From a virus (taxonomy: Duplodnaviria; Caudoviricetes), in IMG/VR virus record IMGVR_UViG_3300043112_000020, positions 1-37,163 of that record: a stretch of DNA of 37,163 bases; one strand, written 5' to 3'. The first letter of the stretch is position 1, and each line of letters starts with the position of its first letter. The translations under genes were made by a program, and so were the position numbers. Below, piece by piece: positions 233 to 37,163 of the stretch. The notes beneath the pieces were generated by a model, which saw only the letters and a program-made list of their open reading frames with translations, did no database searches and was not told the origin of the DNA.

Positions 233-823
233 TCAGGAACCTTTCTGCGGTGTCAGCATCAGATCCTTATCCTTACTTCCCCTGGAACTACCGAACTCGA
301 ACTGGTGGGCTGACTGCAGCCCTGATCCAAACTGGCCCGCCAAATACCCAAGCGGTCCGTTCATCACGCCCATAGCTGCCGATCCTTCGCCGGTAAGTGC
401 CGTAATGCTGACGTACACCATGGCCGCGAGACAGCAAAGCAATCCAGCCACATCACCGATAATCATCAGATTGGCCCTCATATTACTGCTTCCGGAGGCC
501 CGGATTTTTTCGTCACGTTCCCTGGCGTCCTGAATATCGGCGGTGTCGATTTTGCGGTGCTCGATGCCGGCATTGACCAACAGGCGTTTTTCTTCCAGAG
601 CCAGTTCAGCCAGTTTGCCCTTATGCTTGATCTCGGCGGTCTTGAGCTTGACGAACGCCTCCGGGTTTTTGGCCAATTCAGCCTGGACGGCCTCCGGGCT
701 TTCTTCGCATCCAAGCACGTTTGCTACCAGTTTTCCCGCCGCTGTTCCGACGGGACCACCAAGCAATCCCCCGATAACGGGTGCGGCCTTGCCTATGACG
801 CTGCCTATATCCTTCCAGGTCAT
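233..823 (-). CDS. Holin-like membrane protein (3TM/GTA-holin-like)
   Basis: N-terminal APVIGGLLGGPVG motif, coiled coil, DIQDARERD, C-terminal hydrophobic helices ending FEFGSSRGSKDKD; ATGA overlap with endolysin. Confidence 0.75.
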   Translation of the reverse strand: MTWKDIGSVIGKAAPVIGGLLGGPVGTAAGKLVANVLGCEESPEAVQAELAKNPEAFVKLKTAEIKHKGKLAELALEEKRLLVNAGIEHRKIDTADIQDARERDEKIRASGSSNMRANLMIIGDVAGLLCCLAAMVYVSITALTGEGSAAMGVMNGPLGYLAGQFGSGLQSAHQFEFGSSRGSKDKDLMLTPQKGS

Positions 824-1401
824 GCCTTCCCTCCCCGTTCACGCTGCCATTTGATAGCACCGTCAGCGATCGCCCGCGCCAGAAGAGCCTGGTTCTCCTT
901 AGTGCCAAGCCAAACAGCCTCTTCGGCATGAGTGATAAACCCCATTTCAACTAAGATCGCCGGGCCGAAAGTCCTGCGGCACATCCAGAGATTCTTTTCC
1001 CTGTCCTTGTCCCAAACCTGTTCCCCGTCAGTTATGTCATACCGGAGTCTGCGCATGGGAAAAGCGTTCTGGATAGCATTGATAACGTGATATGCAGCGC
1101 GGTCACTGGCCGTCTCGCCGATAGAAGTCCACACTTCAAAACCATGGGCACCAACATTTACGGCAGCGTTACAATGCAGGGATATGGTCAAATCCGGGGA
1201 CAGGTGATGTTCGAGATTGGTGCGGCCGCGCAGTGAGACAAACTTATCTTCCCGTCGCGTCATCCATGTCTTGCCGCCCTGCTCTTTCAAGCAGGCAGCC
1301 AAGAGCGCAGCAACGGAAAGATTGATATCGCACTCGCGAAGACCTTGGGCCACAGCACCGGGATCCTGCCCGCCATGACCGGGATCGATAAGAACATTCA
1401 T
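820..1401 (-). CDS. Endolysin, N-acetylmuramoyl-L-alanine amidase (Amidase_3)
   Basis: IDPGHGGQDPGA, E, ISLHCNA and PAILVEMGFI Zn-amidase motifs. Confidence 0.95.
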   Translation of the reverse strand: MNVLIDPGHGGQDPGAVAQGLRECDINLSVAALLAACLKEQGGKTWMTRREDKFVSLRGRTNLEHHLSPDLTISLHCNAAVNVGAHGFEVWTSIGETASDRAAYHVINAIQNAFPMRRLRYDITDGEQVWDKDREKNLWMCRRTFGPAILVEMGFITHAEEAVWLGTKENQALLARAIADGAIKWQRERGGKA

Positions 1402-1977: not shown

Positions 1978-2020
1978 CAAATAAAAAGCCCGGCGAGAAT
2001 CTTTCGATTCGGGCCGGGCT
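1978..2020 (-). terminator. Intrinsic terminator A, before the lysis cassette
   Basis: AGCCCGGC-cc-GAATC-gaaa-GATTC-tc-GCCGGGCT followed by TTTTATTT on the minus strand. Confidence 0.85.
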
Positions 2021-2075
2021 GATGGGGCACCATAATAGGGTCCGTCAGAATCCGATTGAACATTTTTGTTTAGTC

Positions 2076-2104
2076 ATAGTGGCATGAAGCGGTCCACAGG
2101 TCAA
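2076..2104 (-). promoter_or_regulatory. Putative sigma70 promoter for the lysis leader
   Basis: TTGACC-17 nt-CACTAT with TG extension; -35 lies inside the palindrome ACAGGTC-aa-GACCTGT (2096-2111). Confidence 0.5.
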
Positions 2105-18829: not shown

Positions 18830-18878
18830 AAAACGCAAAAAGCCCGACCAAAACCGCAAAGGGTTAAGGATCGGGCTT
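18830..18878 (-). terminator. Intrinsic terminator B, before the ejection module
   Basis: AAGCCCGATC-ctt-AACC-ctttgc-GGTT-tt-GGTCGGGCTT followed by TTTGCGTTTT. Confidence 0.8.
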
Positions 18879-18948
18879 CAAGGTCACCGAGGGAGTGGCG
18901 GGACCGTCAATCACCGTGGGCACTAAATTTTCAGATACTTTCCCATGT

Positions 18949-24988: not shown

Positions 24989-25405
24989 CTACAACACCTC
25001 GCAATTTGGCATGTCCCATTGCTTGGCCATGTGCTCGATAATCGGAATAATCTCTTCATCGCCTTCGGCCTTAGCCCTAGCGATACACTCGGCCGCCGAG
25101 GTCGGAATAACATGATAGGAAACGGAACAGCCGATTTTCCCGGACTCGTCAATCCATTCCTGCCGTCGCTTTGCCGTGGTGTTTGTGGCGTCCACTATGA
25201 TCTTGTCATGACCGGCAAGGAACAAAGACCGAACCATATACTTGGCCGTGGTCCACACCATCGGTTCAGCATCGTGGATAAAACGCTGGCCATGAATGGC
25301 CAAACGGATACTGTCAGGATTGACAATCGGGATCTCCTGCTGTTTCGCCCATGTGGTTTTTCCGGATCGTGGAAGTCCCACGGTCAAGATCAGTTCTTTC
25401 GGCAT
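24989..25405 (-). CDS. AAA_33 / polynucleotide-kinase-like P-loop kinase
   Basis: VGLPRSGKTT, DSIR, IIVDATN, CIAR lid. Confidence 0.85.
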   Translation of the reverse strand: MPKELILTVGLPRSGKTTWAKQQEIPIVNPDSIRLAIHGQRFIHDAEPMVWTTAKYMVRSLFLAGHDKIIVDATNTTAKRRQEWIDESGKIGCSVSYHVIPTSAAECIARAKAEGDEEIIPIIEHMAKQWDMPNCEVL

Positions 25406-31938: not shown

Positions 31939-32189
31939 TAGCTATCCCTCCGCGTAAAATGCCGCCACAGGCGAACATACCAGGGCGCGACGGGCTTCTT
32001 GCAGGCCACCTTGCCCTCGCACTTGAGAACAATACGATCCCGAGAAACGATCTTTTGTACCCGCCACAAAGCGCCGTTGACCTCCCACACTTCCCCGCGC
32101 ACTACCGGAGCAGCGTCGAGTTTGCGGTGTCCCAGCAGCATTTCACGCTGCTTGGCGTCCAGGGGATTCGTGCAGCCCTTGCTTTTCAT
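31938..32189 (-). CDS. Hypothetical protein, 83 aa
   Basis: ATGA/TAATG coupling to both neighbours. Confidence 0.65.
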   Translation of the reverse strand: MKSKGCTNPLDAKQREMLLGHRKLDAAPVVRGEVWEVNGALWRVQKIVSRDRIVLKCEGKVACKKPVAPWYVRLWRHFTRRDS

Positions 32190-32812
32190 GCCAGTGCCCC
32201 CAGGTCGTTGCCGTCCTTATGCGGAAAATCGCGGTGATCGACCGTCGAACCGTTAACCATGATCCGGCTGCCAAGCTCGATACGGGCCGACAGCAGCATC
32301 TTGTCACCGCGTTTGACACCGATATAGGGCGGGTTCTGGTTGTTCAGCACGACGCGCAGGGGATCAGCAGCGGCCACAACCGCACCAGGCTCCAGGTTCT
32401 CCAACTCGGCCGGGTCAATATCAACGCTGGCAACAACTTCGACTTTGCCGAAATCCTCATACCCTTCGACCAGCGGCGCCAGGGCATGCACGGTATTACG
32501 GAACAACACGTCTTTGGCCTGTTGCTCTTTGGGCAACTGATCGAACGGAACCATGCAGGGGTGGGTCTTGGCCGTACCGTCCTTCTCTTCGCCGAATACC
32601 CAGCCGTCAGCCTCTTTCTGTGCCATCCAGCTTTCATGGCTGGCCTGCGGTCCTGCGTTAGGGTTGTCCAGATGGAACTGAACTCCCGCAATAGCGCTTT
32701 CCTTCTGCCACTTCGGAGCGTAATGCCAGCTTTTCTGGCTGTCGTCGCCCAGGGCTTGGCAGTATTCGCGGTTGGCTTCGTGGCAAATTTCGGCGATCTG
32801 TTCAACGGTCAT
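32186..32812 (-). CDS. RyR-domain protein
   Basis: IAEICHEANR.YC, SHESWM.QK..DGW.FG..KD...KTHPCMVPFDQLP.EQQ.KD. Confidence 0.85.
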   Translation of the reverse strand: MTVEQIAEICHEANREYCQALGDDSQKSWHYAPKWQKESAIAGVQFHLDNPNAGPQASHESWMAQKEADGWVFGEEKDGTAKTHPCMVPFDQLPKEQQAKDVLFRNTVHALAPLVEGYEDFGKVEVVASVDIDPAELENLEPGAVVAAADPLRVVLNNQNPPYIGVKRGDKMLLSARIELGSRIMVNGSTVDHRDFPHKDGNDLGALA

Positions 32813-33511: not shown

Positions 33512-35020
33512 TTACGCTGTCTTCCAGCTTCCCTTCTTACGCCTGCGGCTTCCTTTGGTGGCCGGCACATACCGATACCCGCGGGCCAGTGTTTCCAGTG
33601 CGTCATAACCGTGCATCGCCCAATCGTGCCGCGGGCGGTTCTTCCAGCATCCGTTGTGGTCGTCCCATTCGCGCCGGAAGTTGTCCAGACACTTGATCCC
33701 TTCGCTGCAGGACTCTTCATCGAACCAGCATGTTGGCAGGAATTGCCGCGTCTCCTGGATCGCCGTGTACTTATCGTCAATCCTGGGGACCACGACGATG
33801 TTTTGCATATTGGCGTCGGACAGGATCTGTTCAATGGTGCGCGGTTTTTCGTCGGCGCTCTTGGTGGATCCCATACGGCGCTGGCCGGCATCGTGCGGCA
33901 GAAAGTGTTGCCCCCAGATGTAACCGAGCCTTTGCATCTCCCGCCAGTAGTACAAAACGTCATCGTCGGATCCGGTCATATAGCCGATGATCCGGTTTTC
34001 CAGTCCCACCCGCTGATGGAACCAGATGCACATAAGGTCGTTGAGGCCGAAGTCCCAGGCGCTGTTAACCGGTATGCCAGGCTCATGCGGCACCGTGGTA
34101 ATGCGTACATCCTTACGAAGCTTGGCCATCTGCTTGGCCAGATAGGCCCCCTCGATGGCGGCGGCAAATGCTTCTTCGGGATAGCTGGGATGTTCTCGGG
34201 TCATATCGTCCTGCAACGTCTTGAGCTTCTCGGCGTACCAGGCTTTCTGAAACGGATCGAGCTGGACACCGGTAATCGCCTCGATCTCGGCAAAATACTT
34301 GGCCAGTTCCTTGGTAATGACCACGCCTTTCGGATTCAGCCGCTTACGAGGATCTTCCCACCAAGCGAAGAAATGCAGCTTGTACTGCAGCTTATTCGGC
34401 TTTTGCCCTGCCTGCTGCCGTTTCAAGGCCTCCATGCAGTAATCGTAAAAGTAGCCGTCGTTGCCTTCAGCGGTGCTTTCGATAAAGATCATGTTGCCGG
34501 GGTGGACTGTTTCCAGGGTGCCGGTGACAATCTCCCGGGCCTTCTCGGGGAATTTGGCGCACAGCTTGCCGAACTCGGAGATATGCACCATCTGATAGGT
34601 GCCTGAACGCAAACTTGTCCCGACCTCGATCATGGACCCGTTCCCAAACTTGAGCTTCTTCGCGCTTTCGGTATCGGCCGGACGTGCGTTTTTCAACCCA
34701 TCAGGAAGCTCGTCGTAGGGGAATTGCACCTTCTTTTCGTGGATCTTCTCCACGTCTTCCCGGGTATGGGCGTTGATACCCACCGAGTAATGATCCCGAA
34801 ACAGCGCCTGATCCAAACCGAAAATCCCCAAAAAGGTGGTGAAACCCAACTGGCGGGCCTTAAGGATCAGGTTGAGGTACCACAGGTTTTCAATGAGCGT
34901 GGTTTGCGCTGCGTTCGGCCTGAACGGGGTCTTTTTGCCGTCCTCGTTCACGCAGTAATACAGGTTGTGCAGTCTCCACATTGGAGAGCTGAAATTTTCA
35001 ATCAACTCAACGCGATTCAT
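33512..35020 (-). CDS. terL: Terminase large subunit
   Basis: ILKARQLGFTT, HISEFG, IESTAEG, WDFG.ND, FLPHDA, PRHDWAMHGYDA. Confidence 0.95.
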   Translation of the reverse strand: MNRVELIENFSSPMWRLHNLYYCVNEDGKKTPFRPNAAQTTLIENLWYLNLILKARQLGFTTFLGIFGLDQALFRDHYSVGINAHTREDVEKIHEKKVQFPYDELPDGLKNARPADTESAKKLKFGNGSMIEVGTSLRSGTYQMVHISEFGKLCAKFPEKAREIVTGTLETVHPGNMIFIESTAEGNDGYFYDYCMEALKRQQAGQKPNKLQYKLHFFAWWEDPRKRLNPKGVVITKELAKYFAEIEAITGVQLDPFQKAWYAEKLKTLQDDMTREHPSYPEEAFAAAIEGAYLAKQMAKLRKDVRITTVPHEPGIPVNSAWDFGLNDLMCIWFHQRVGLENRIIGYMTGSDDDVLYYWREMQRLGYIWGQHFLPHDAGQRRMGSTKSADEKPRTIEQILSDANMQNIVVVPRIDDKYTAIQETRQFLPTCWFDEESCSEGIKCLDNFRREWDDHNGCWKNRPRHDWAMHGYDALETLARGYRYVPATKGSRRRKKGSWKTA

Positions 35021-35643
35021 CCTCTTGAAACTTCTGTTACAAGCGCCCTTTCAATTGGCCAACCCCTTCTTATTCTGTTGCGCACGAGGTAATAATCTAG
35101 GCCGGCATTTTCTGCCAATTCGGCCAAGCTTTTTATTGCACCTCGATACTCAACCAACTTGGTTCCCCTCCTATTCCTCATTTGCTCTTTTTGGGATGCC
35201 CATCGACAATTACTTGGTGCGTAATTTCCATTCACATCAATCCGGTCAAGTGAATATTCAGAGCCGGGCTTCTCTCCCATGTCGGACAAAAAAGCCTCAA
35301 AGCTATTTCTCCACCTAGAGCAAACCTTTATGCCGCGTTCACCGTAATGCTTGAATTTCTCCGAGCCGACTCTTTCACACCGGTCAATCATTCCAGTCCA
35401 AGCCTTGTACTCGGGCGTCCCCACTCTTCCATGAACAGAGAGCCTTTCTTTGCTTTTCTCGTTTCGCAAGCAGCCGCAACTTCTTGTGTCACCGTTTCGC
35501 AAAGACTGGCCAACTATTTCCGCCCGCTCGCCACAGTCACACAGGCAAATCCAAGTTAGGTGTCCATTCCGATTTCTTTGCCCCTTCGCTACAACCAACA
35601 GCCGTCCAAACCTTTGGCCGATAAGATCAATAAGCTTGCCCAT
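35017..35643 (-). CDS. Free-standing HNH endonuclease
   Basis: GQRFGRL.V..W.C.CDCG..SCGC; YGERGIKVCSRW..F..F..DMG; SLDRIDVNGNYAPSNCRWA..Q..NRR; AT-richer than flanks. Confidence 0.9.
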   Translation of the reverse strand: MGKLIDLIGQRFGRLLVVAKGQRNRNGHLTWICLCDCGERAEIVGQSLRNGDTRSCGCLRNEKSKERLSVHGRVGTPEYKAWTGMIDRCERVGSEKFKHYGERGIKVCSRWRNSFEAFLSDMGEKPGSEYSLDRIDVNGNYAPSNCRWASQKEQMRNRRGTKLVEYRGAIKSLAELAENAGLDYYLVRNRIRRGWPIERALVTEVSRG

Positions 35644-35658
35644 TGCGAACTCCTTCGC

Positions 35659-35728
35659 CTCACAATTTCAGCAGCGGCAGCGGAGGTGAGTAGGCTCCGT
35701 TTTCGCCTGGCCAGACTAGCCGCTACTA
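35659..35728 (-). ncRNA. Putative three-way-junction cis RNA in the HNH leader
   Basis: P1 UAGUAGCGGC/GCCGCUGCUG, P2 GUCU-GGCC-AGGC, GAAAA linker, P3 CGGAG-ccuacucac-CUCCG; loop CUCAC complementary to downstream GUGAG. Confidence 0.6.
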
Positions 35729-35739
35729 TTCTTAATTTT

Positions 35740-36357
35740 TCATTCACCGTCCTTGACCAGGCTGGCATTGCGCTGCGCAACTTCGTCCAGGACGGATTCA
35801 AGGTCGGAAACCGGGCCCTGCTTCTCGTCCAAATTGAAGGCTTGACGTTCAAGCGCGATCAGGTTTTTCATGGCCGTCGACAGGTCGCGGATGGTCCCAG
35901 CATGCCCCGGGAGGGAAACGGCCCGAAGCATTTGGTTGCGGCGCTTGACGTTGCTGTCACCGGCTGTCTCATCTTCAATGGCGTCCTCGATCTCGTCGCG
36001 GTTGGTTGCGGCTTCTTCGAGTTGCCCCATAAGGAGGCCAACCAAGGTACGACCGTGATTTATGTCCTTGCGGTGAAGCCTGATAACTTCGGCCCCGCGT
36101 TCTGCAGCCGCCTCGACAACCTCGGCTTCGTTAACACTCGCGTTACCCTTGTTAACCTCTGTGTTAACCAGCTTAGCGTTAACCGCTTTTCGTACCTGGT
36201 TGCTCAGGTCGCGGTTCCACCCCTCCTTTTTGGCTTTCTTGGTGATTGCAGGAGCGGATACGCCGTATTCCCGACCGATTTCACGAATAGACAACTGGCC
36301 GGCGCGATACTCACGCTCAACGGCTTCCCAATCGATCTTTTTACGTTTATCTGCCAT
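35740..36357 (-). CDS. terS: Terminase small subunit (start reassigned to MADKRKKIDW)
   Basis: DWEAVEREYRAGQLSIREI..GVS..AI.KKAKKEGW.RDL HTH; LIALERQAFNLD. Confidence 0.88.
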   Translation of the reverse strand: MADKRKKIDWEAVEREYRAGQLSIREIGREYGVSAPAITKKAKKEGWNRDLSNQVRKAVNAKLVNTEVNKGNASVNEAEVVEAAAERGAEVIRLHRKDINHGRTLVGLLMGQLEEAATNRDEIEDAIEDETAGDSNVKRRNQMLRAVSLPGHAGTIRDLSTAMKNLIALERQAFNLDEKQGPVSDLESVLDEVAQRNASLVKDGE

Positions 36358-36367
36358 TGTCCCGCCC

Positions 36368-36412
36368 AAAAAAAAACAAAAGCCCGGCAAAAGCCTTTCG
36401 GCCTGCCGGGCT
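36368..36412 (-). terminator. Intrinsic terminator C, before terS
   Basis: AGCCCGGCA-GGCC-gaaa-GGCT-tt-TGCCGGGCT followed by TTTGTTTTTTTTT. Confidence 0.88.
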
Positions 36413-36558
36413 CCCGGTCGCATCCTCCTGGAGGACCGTGAATCACCTGTATCGTCAGTAGAGGCCTCCGCCTCTTTTCTGTCGGGGAATGGGCAGCGCT
36501 ACCAATCAGCCCGTCGACCGATCACCCCTTGCGGAGTGCATCCCCCTTCCCGTGTGAT

Positions 36559-36741
36559 TTAGAATTCAAGTGCTACCTGCGGGGGTTTGTCCACCCCGCC
36601 ACAGTTCATGTGGATCTTTACGGTTACGGTGCCGCTGAATTGATCCCCAGCCAGATCTACAGCTTTGGGAACCATCTCACGGACCTTGGAGCATGCCCGG
36701 TTTACCAATTGATTTACCTTGCGTTCCGTGCCGTCTTTCAT
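36559..36741 (-). CDS. 60-aa leader protein MKDGTERKV...FSGTVTVKIHMNCGGV...
   Basis: GGAGGGG SD before ATG at 36741; helix plus beta-hairpin pattern, loosely DUF2292-like. Confidence 0.7.
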   Translation of the reverse strand: MKDGTERKVNQLVNRACSKVREMVPKAVDLAGDQFSGTVTVKIHMNCGGVDKPPQVALEF

Positions 36742-36773
36742 CGCCCCTCCACATCCACTGAACATTTTTGATG

Positions 36774-36802
36774 AGTCTGCCAGAAAGCTCGGTGTAATGC
36801 AA
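36774..36802 (-). promoter_or_regulatory. Putative late-operon sigma70 promoter
   Basis: TTGCAT-17 nt-CAGACT with TG extension, followed by CAAAAATGTTCA shared with the lysis promoter. Confidence 0.55.
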
Positions 36803-36845: not shown

Positions 36846-37163
36846 CTCAACTTTCGCAGACGAAAAATATCTTTAACATGCTGAAATAAATAGACAAAAG
36901 CATCATCTCTTGTTGTAAAATAGGTTATCGCCAAACAACCTGATACAAACAAGGAGATGATGCTTTGGACCAGATTGTAGCAGAAACTGTTTCATGTCAA
37001 AACCAAATTACTTCGTTCTTTGATAATCAGCGCATCGCACGACTACTGCGGCAAAGCAACATTGCCAAACAGTGTGGCATTGCTCCCGTTGTGGTGATGC
37101 GGATGATCTTCAGCCTTGTTTTTACCGGCAAGAACCTGTTCCGCTACTTGCAGGCGGATGACT
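36846..37163 (+). mobile_element. Left end of a DDE insertion sequence (IS4-like, possibly ISNCY ISDol1 group), truncated by the window
   Basis: Candidate terminal IR CTCAACTTTCGCA; AT-rich leader; transposase-like ORF follows. Confidence 0.7.
36965..37163 (+). CDS. Transposase N-terminus (partial): MDQIVAETVSCQNQITSFFDNQRIARLLRQSNIAKQCGIAPVVVMRMIFSLVFTGKNLFRYL
   Basis: TTG start, AAGGAG SD 8 nt upstream; FF....I..LL...N..K..G.....IF.LVF.GKNL pattern recalled from such transposases. Confidence 0.75.
   Translation, partial: MDQIVAETVSCQNQITSFFDNQRIARLLRQSNIAKQCGIAPVVVMRMIFSLVFTGKNLFRYLQADD

Follow-up and report, generated by a model that had tools for sequence, protein, structure and literature searches.

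Organization of the late region

The window analyzed in this work is the whole 37,163-nt virus record IMGVR_UViG_3300043112_000020, which represents the late half of a podovirus-like phage; its late genes lie on the minus strand, and the early region is missing. In their listed order, the late genes encode the terminase small subunit (terS), an HNH protein, the terminase large subunit, a P22-like portal, capsid, tail proteins, a 4544-aa DarB-like protein, and an amidase endolysin, of which terS, portal, capsid, the DarB-like giant protein, and the endolysin are supported by Pfam/PHROG matches. The late operon is 35 kb long and contains three modules, each located behind an intrinsic terminator. 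The packaging/head/tail module is opened by terS (35740-36357, minus strand; phrog_1206, E 5e-57) behind terminator 1; the ejection module behind terminator 2 includes a 130-aa gene, virion proteins, and the DarB-like protein (PHROG matches); and the lysis module behind terminator 3 comprises 104-aa and 76-aa ORFs and the amidase endolysin at 820-1401 (minus strand; Pfam/PHROG matches).

Between terS and the HNH endonuclease gene (35017-35643, minus strand), an Rfam int-alpA RNA was identified at 35657-35726 on the same strand with 46.6 bits, above the gathering score. The related loci L001 and L002 are without the block formed by this RNA and the HNH gene, L004 has a reduced version, and a contig joint (35008-35744) skips it; the block is an optional mobile insert, with int-alpA placed outside its usual context. 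A RyR-domain protein and a small kinase-like protein are also encoded among the structural genes (32186-32812 and 24989-25405, minus strand). The right end of the window, from about position 36846, appears to be an insertion sequence, for which the transposase identity is presumed by us from resemblance; the ORF fragment at this end has no match in Pfam, PHROGs, or plasmids, and loose contig ends flank 36845/36846 on both sides, at the putative border of the insertion. This probable insertion sequence (36846-37163, plus strand) lies 43 nt upstream of the -35 box of the late promoter and terminates the contig, concealing the early region.

Promoters and leader of the late operon

According to the first-pass annotation, the late operon opens with a promoter, a 60-aa gene, a hairpin-rich non-coding leader of about 200 nt, and a strong terminator in front of terS. 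A predicted sigma-70 promoter, TTGCAT-17-TG-CAGACT, is indeed found at the operon head (36774-36802, minus strand), where it would drive a p60-leader-terS transcript; it was assigned by sequence match, and its spacing is kept in L001, L002, and the complete genome G001. The 60-aa ORF, named p60, is located at 36559-36741 (minus strand) and encodes a candidate RNA-binding antiterminator with the signature F[ST]G..NxGG. Another predicted sigma-70 promoter, TTGACC-17-TG-CACTAT, assigned by consensus match only, precedes the lysis module (2076-2104, minus strand). A simple promoter/terminator scanner was blind to the main promoter and to all three terminators.

Both predicted late promoters are overlapped by a copy of the quasi-palindrome GACTnAnCA-N4-TGTTCA (36759-36777, over the -10/start region, and 2057-2075, minus strand), which was found by motif scan twice in the window and in none of 200 shuffles. 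The same motif occurs at L001:475-493 and L002:1491-1509, and no copy was found in the scanned stretches of G001 and G002. It is a possible operator for a repressor or an activator.

The spacer between p60 and the switch described below (36449-36558, minus strand) is hairpin-rich and variable in relatives. The distance from the p60 stop codon to the motif is about 110 nt in the window, 125 nt in L001, 227 nt in L002, and about 440 nt, including an ORF, in G001; in one contig that retains the gene and the switch, the spacer is swapped for 121 other letters. Thus, the leader is hairpin-rich as annotated, but its length is about 110 nt, and the figure of 200 nt counts the motif and terminator as well. 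The leader RNA had also been named as a potential actor; this alternative is unsupported because the spacer is freely replaced.

A hairpin overlapping each module terminator

The composite motif ACGGWCC-(18-23 nt)-AGCCCG..CGGGCTTTT is present in exactly three copies in the window (36378-36439, 18837-18907, and 1983-2045, minus strand), with spacers of 20, 23, and 18 nt, so the same layout precedes the packaging, ejection, and lysis modules as initially noticed; each of 200 dinucleotide shuffles contains none, in a post hoc comparison, as the pattern was derived from these copies. ACGGWCC alone is at chance level (15 matches vs. a mean of 10.2, not significant), and a viral scan built on it returned 29 loci, mainly unrelated terminators. 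The 5' boundary of the element was shifted upstream after comparison of close relatives, the complete G001, and the distant G002. The conserved unit is neither ACGGWCC nor the leader but a hairpin of 40-45 nt in the window and 33-55 nt across the family; the annotated CGGUC..GACCG hairpin is present, but as the middle of this longer structure, which starts 9 nt upstream and overlaps the terminator, and not as a complete element.

The constant feature in relatives is YGG-NNN-YY paired with RG-C-CCR, the latter being the first six bases of the terminator. The predicted fold contains two 3x1 internal loops and proceeds from a 3x1 loop through a stem of 8-9 bp and a reversed 1x3 loop to a variable apical hairpin; the second (1x3) loop was assigned by inspection and its register is variable. 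The internal-loop letters differ among copies (UGA, AUU, AUA, and GUA).

In all three window copies, the last 6 nt of the hairpin (AGCCCG) form the 5' arm of the terminator. The predicted antiterminator hairpin 1 (36407-36448, minus strand) shares positions 36407-36412 with terminator 1 (36368-36412, minus strand), a hairpin of -24.5 kcal/mol followed by a U-tract, the end of which is 10 nt upstream of the terS ATG (36357), in agreement with the strong terminator annotated there. Hairpin 2 (18872-18916, minus strand; model and fold), which is the weakest of the three and has no space upstream for a promoter or small gene, is followed by terminator 2 (18837-18877, minus strand; fold) ahead of the ejection module. 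Hairpin 3 (2015-2054, minus strand) is the minimum-energy fold of its nascent fragment and is followed by terminator 3 (1983-2020, minus strand; fold) ahead of the lysis module.

Conservation and energetics of the hairpin

A DNA-only scan covering 23 of the 64 parts of IMG/VR yielded 121 loci (98 unique). Of 89 candidates drawn from all loci collected before model building, 21 passed a fold filter, by which the structure had to lie within 1 kcal/mol of the minimum. The seed alignment comprises 24 rows, namely 19 filter-passing sequences and five window-clade copies failing the filter; two further loci that passed, L140 and L166, were excluded as ambiguous. In this alignment, 81.5% of cells are paired vs. 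60.3% when shuffled and at most 51% when slid, both GG:CC pairs are invariant, the YY:RG pairs are kept in 24/24 sequences with five double changes, and double-change cells number 116 vs. 44, all of these counts being inflated by selection because 19 of the 24 rows were chosen for folding into the structure. The 32 distinct later matches, nearly all held-out, include one training sequence and one bare terminator; in their alignment, which was fitted to the model, 86.2% vs. 65.9% of cells are paired. In 18 of 24 seed sequences and 28 of 31 further ones, the hairpin exceeds its interior shuffles in stability (z < -1.65). The window copies have z values of -2.5, -0.85, and -2.0; the second value belongs to the weak ejection copy, which lies 4 kcal/mol above its own minimum-energy fold, and for the terS copy a shifted register is better by 1.2 kcal/mol.

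The covariance model gives exactly three matches in the window, with 58, 52, and 42 bits, followed by a next score of 9.4 bits. It also scores ordinary AGCCCG..CGGGCTTTT terminators at up to about 30-38 bits, which overlaps the weak end of the true copies. The Rfam 15 covariance models produced no match at the three window copies and, on 17 phage and 18 chromosomal loci, only sub-threshold chance matches over the hairpin. The terminator fold is favored over the hairpin by 9.1, 14.5, and 5.4 kcal/mol in the window (family median about 9), and therefore the predicted default state of the switch is OFF.

The p60 protein family

The predicted fold of p60 consists of a helix (residues 3-32) and a beta-hairpin (pLDDT 76); an alignment-based model is without the beta-hairpin (pLDDT 71). 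Members of the family have 41-71 aa and, beyond the closest relatives, share 13-45% identity with p60. A single-sequence homology search returned two near-identical proteins, a search of a representative set returned 21 matches (six small proteins and 15 long multi-stretch chance matches), and the best score in the ESM Atlas, 0.85, belongs to an unnamed protein. No Pfam, PHROG, or NCBIfam family was found for p60, its homologues likewise have no Pfam/NCBIfam match, including the CAT and PRD domains, and no sequence relative of p60 was found in the PDB. A fold search gave no BFVD match at E <= 0.001; the best VIA-align match (Z 5.0) involved generic helices and was uninformative.

DUF2292 (YezD-like, PF10055) is similar to p60 in size and in its helix-then-hairpin pattern. 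Its best score, obtained for one of seven proteins, a chromosomal homologue, is 11.9 bits (E 0.17), below the 22-bit gathering cut-off, and p60 itself and the five records searched gave no match; DUF2292 is at most a distant relative of the p60 family. No function of DUF2292 was found in the papers retrieved for it.

Distribution of the hairpin and p60 among phages

The covariance model was run over 50 records. Three hairpin copies were found in each of G001, G002, and G018, four in the complete G017, which G018 overlaps, and two in G021. In the complete G001, the copies lie ahead of terS, the ejection module, and the lysis genes, matching their placement in the window; in G002, the capsid is 22% identical to that of the window. 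Among the six capsid/terminase relatives, G009 has one copy and G006 (<90% complete) a weak model match, G007, G008, and G010 (each <90% complete) have no model match, and the strict pattern is found in 0/5, all but G009 being <90% complete.

At eight of the 18 inspected RNA-selected loci, a p60-like ORF of 41-60 aa with the signature F[ST]G..xGG ends 0-51 nt before the hairpin (one of the eight is cut by a contig end). Several of the remaining loci are internal copies with the small gene elsewhere in the genome, and p60 was not found in the fragments G013 and G020. Two copies found solely by the model, in G017 and G021, have a p60-like ORF directly upstream. A profile search was positive in 12 of 50 records, all of them training sequences, and thus has no evidential weight. 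A profile from 13 chromosomal homologues matched upstream (E <= 1) at six of 15 structure-positive loci vs. two of 83 other pattern loci; among 2598 segments, its top three are the G002, G001, and window proteins, in that order (E 0.12-1.3), the match to the window p60 being weak (E 1.3).

Several variant arrangements were observed. In L005/G009, a p60-like gene directly precedes terS without an intervening terminator, the switch is located behind terL and has a promoter of its own, and tRNA-like genes are located upstream. In L074, L141, and L148, a sigma-70 promoter overlaps the start of the small gene, which suggests putative leaderless or very short-leader translation. The lysis cassette of G001 is flanked by IS200/IS605-type insertions (about 30.5-32.2 kb and 28.2-29.3 kb), and the third hairpin persists about 110 nt downstream of one of them.

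A canonical Q protein encoded elsewhere had been considered as a full explanation of readthrough. The Q families PF06530 and PF03589 gave no match in five related records, three of them at least 96% complete, with positive controls; the search with PF06323 was uninformative, as its control was silent too. Antiterminator PHROGs had no match among the 31 ORFs of G001 and 60 ORFs of G017, an incomplete ORF set obtained with a simple caller. Thus, no canonical Q was detected in complete relatives; in the window itself, the missing early region may encode one.

Chromosomal loci and a satellite copy

The chromosomal distribution was analyzed in a held-out set of 151 genomes from the class of a Geobacteraceae MAG (G054), using models made from the phage loci and three database proteins without genomic context. 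The RNA was detected in 25 genomes, the protein in 18, and both in 12 (Fisher p 3e-7, with related genomes not independent); the 13 RNA-positive, protein-negative genomes include noise because the model also scores ordinary terminators. At 17 of 19 protein loci, the RNA follows the gene on the same strand, with E < 0.001 at 14 of them and 0.002-0.014 at three. Of the other two, L374 is a false protein match, and the last locus is phage-like with a variant hairpin recognized by eye. The expectation that the motif is conserved and linked to the small gene is therefore upheld by the pair-supported hairpin, by the p60-like ORFs upstream of model-only copies, and by the RNA downstream of the held-out protein loci. 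Thus, as judged from sequence, the hairpin is found with a p60-like small protein in unrelated phages, both sipho- and podovirus-like, and in Geobacter-type bacteria.

Chromosomal copies precede genes for secreted proteins, and six of 12 downstream ORFs have a PEP-CTERM-like tail recognized by eye. In six of 18 chromosomal loci, the terminator is followed by a c-di-GMP-I-GGC riboswitch (three above the gathering score), and one of the 18 sits after a Moco riboswitch. As reported in works cited in PMC9481103, Geobacter variants of the c-di-GMP-I-GGC class sense c-AMP-GMP. Additional copies of the switch occur elsewhere in the chromosomes, with up to three model matches per genome, which suggests a putative regulon. 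In Geobacter-type bacteria, the p60-hairpin pair is likely to control a regulon of chromosomal genes for secreted proteins.

Several features recur in the loci of this class. Across L328-L375, the p60-like gene and the switch are often followed by a cyclic-dinucleotide riboswitch and a PEP-CTERM-like gene. In L350/L375, L369, L372, and L362, a Moco riboswitch (Rfam-confirmed in L350) is followed by the small gene, the switch, and membrane-protein genes. Upstream of the small gene in L357, L359-L361, L363, L364, L367, and L373, TGTAACA/TGTAATA is followed by GCT/GTT, a motif that we take to resemble an ECF-sigma promoter.

A pattern scan of GTDB (4 of 64 parts) yielded 120 loci, and the model was run on 100. 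These loci are mostly ordinary terminators, and among the 13 top matches inspected, L238 alone was convincing. It belongs to a PICI-like island (L238:2681-7624) adjoining groEL in the Geobacteraceae MAG G054, which contains an integrase, the RNA (42.5 bits), alpA, a replication protein, and a primase-helicase. No p60 match was found in this genome, a single case and a MAG that may be incomplete. The island may respond to the antiterminator of a helper.

Proposed mechanism and alternative explanations

Since the hairpin recurs over terminators and co-occurs with the small protein, this protein likely binds the hairpin and switches the genes on. We propose that the late modules are controlled by a site-by-site protein-RNA antiterminator that would work like BglG/SacY-RAT without being a member of that family, with p60 as the candidate protein stabilizing the hairpin; we assign this reading a probability of about 0.72. 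The p60 protein likely binds the upstream hairpin, probably as a dimer on the two internal loops, and the bound hairpin would keep the terminator from forming and so permit readthrough. The short promoter-p60-terminator transcript would yield p60 first, and the accumulating protein would then open the three gates site by site. Packaging, ejection, and lysis genes would thus be switched on after a delay or past a threshold, with no need of Q. In the window and G001, p60 would be produced from the terminated leader transcript, and in G002 from a gene just upstream of the late promoter, so that late genes would be expressed once p60 exceeds a threshold.

Alternatively, the switch could be real and yet respond to a host factor or small ligand, with p60 as its target or a travelling accessory. 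The satellite that carries the RNA without a p60 match in its genome and the chromosomal copies in tandem with riboswitches would fit this scheme, and binding of p60 to the hairpin is predicted. We consider it unlikely, as the gene adjoins the RNA in sipho- and podovirus-like phages as well as in chromosomes, and the loop letters shift by lineage, unlike a metabolite pocket. Moreover, the small gene lies upstream of the terminator, or of the promoter (G002 and L169), and therefore is not a gated target.

The energetics bear on a quite improbable explanation with the opposite sign, in which p60 favors termination or the hairpin makes the terminators leaky for fixed module ratios. The hairpin forms first in transcription and is stable (median about -11 kcal/mol), so that some factor-free readthrough is plausible, and p60 is encoded in the transcript that it would regulate. 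However, the terminator wins unaided by a median of 9 kcal/mol, and the conserved loops occur only in the terminator-excluding fold; therefore, a loop-recognizing protein would stabilize readthrough.

Because every terminator, including that of the promoterless copy 2, has an overlapping hairpin of its own, it is very unlikely that a processive antiterminator (put-, nut-, conAn-, or Q-like) loads at the motif and modifies RNA polymerase for the length of the operon. Such a system would suit a 35-kb operon headed by a small gene and a non-coding leader, with an operator-like DNA motif at both promoters; however, the leader is replaceable and Q is undetected in complete relatives, and conAn, according to PMC8191782, involves a large RNA and readthrough of many terminators. 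Translation-coupled attenuation, with the ribosome on the small ORF rather than its product setting the fold, appears highly improbable: the stop codon is 0-7 nt from the hairpin in several phages, but this distance spans 0 to about 440 nt overall, an adjacent small ORF is missing from most copies (window copies 2 and 3 and many chromosomal ones), and the protein retains its structural signature and not codon runs.

Beyond the p60-hairpin antiterminator favored for the window, a broader scenario is possible, although we would put it at somewhat less than even odds. Dimeric antiterminators of 40-70 aa and a dyad-symmetric hairpin would replace Q in diverse phages; they would have been domesticated in Geobacter-type bacteria as a PEP-CTERM surface-protein regulon in series with cyclic-dinucleotide riboswitches; and PICI-like satellites would eavesdrop via the hairpin before alpA, with the late switch of the helper triggering induction.

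Many phages have terminators before their late genes and no recognizable antiterminator; a candidate protein and RNA site can now be named, which makes the question testable with a protein of 60 aa and an RNA of 80 nt. If the proposal is true, RAT-type site-by-site antitermination extends from sugar operons to a phage lytic timer. In Geobacter-type bacteria, a genetically tractable group, it points to an unrecognized layer over surface-protein genes, stacked with cyclic-dinucleotide riboswitches. The satellite copy suggests a way for an island to sense its helper, and loop letters that differ by lineage hint at orthogonal protein-RNA pairs of use in synthetic biology.

Comparison with known antitermination systems

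The supposition that this late-gene switch is undescribed holds so far, as matches to it were found neither in Rfam, Pfam, PHROG, and NCBIfam nor in published work; the literature covered was mainly open-access, and no description of the p60-hairpin system was found in its accessible portion, including that of PMC11109978. The first-pass annotation had offered lambda Q, HK022 put, and pLS20 conAn as analogies, all of them processive systems that fit poorly, given that each terminator here has its own overlapping hairpin.

The lambdoid Q protein loads at a DNA site and acts processively. The window shares with lambdoid phages a promoter, a short leader, and a strong terminator ahead of the late genes, with a small regulator gene at the early/late border; unlike the single promoter-proximal site of Q, 3-4 terminators each have a separate hairpin, and searches of the complete relatives revealed no Q family. 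The put RNA of HK022 acts without any protein and without overlapping the terminators it suppresses; in common with put, the present system has a structured nascent RNA that is proposed to promote readthrough in a phage. According to PMC8191782, conAn of pLS20 is processive, with a protein and one large RNA heading a very long operon. Here, too, a protein and an RNA are found at the head of a very long mobile-element operon, whereas the leader is variable (spacer of 0-440 nt, replaceable) and a short element is repeated at every terminator.

The closest parallel is provided by the RAT elements of the BglG/SacY/LicT family. As described in PMC5393181, RAT is 29-33 nt long, has two equivalent internal loops, each contacted by one monomer, and overlaps its terminator by 6-10 nt; a small dimeric domain holds it open, and a terminator preference of 6.6 kcal/mol is reported for licS-RAT. 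Similarly, two internal loops, predicted from the fold and backed by the pair counts, interrupt the stem of the phage hairpin, and its apical loop is variable; the hairpin shares 6 nt (AGCCCG) with the 5' arm of the terminator and competes with a terminator that is favored by several kcal/mol. A p60 dimer is our proposal by analogy. The hairpin is longer than RAT (33-55 nt, 40-45 nt in the window), and the p60 family, with 41-71 aa, no CAT/PRD match, and a predicted helix and beta-hairpin, is distinct from CAT-PRD proteins. In contrast to BglG, SacY, and LicT, p60 is seemingly controlled by its own amount, and the genes behind the switch are phage late modules and those for secreted proteins instead of sugar operons. 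Thus, both the protein and the RNA are new components, placed in new settings and probably following a RAT-like principle.
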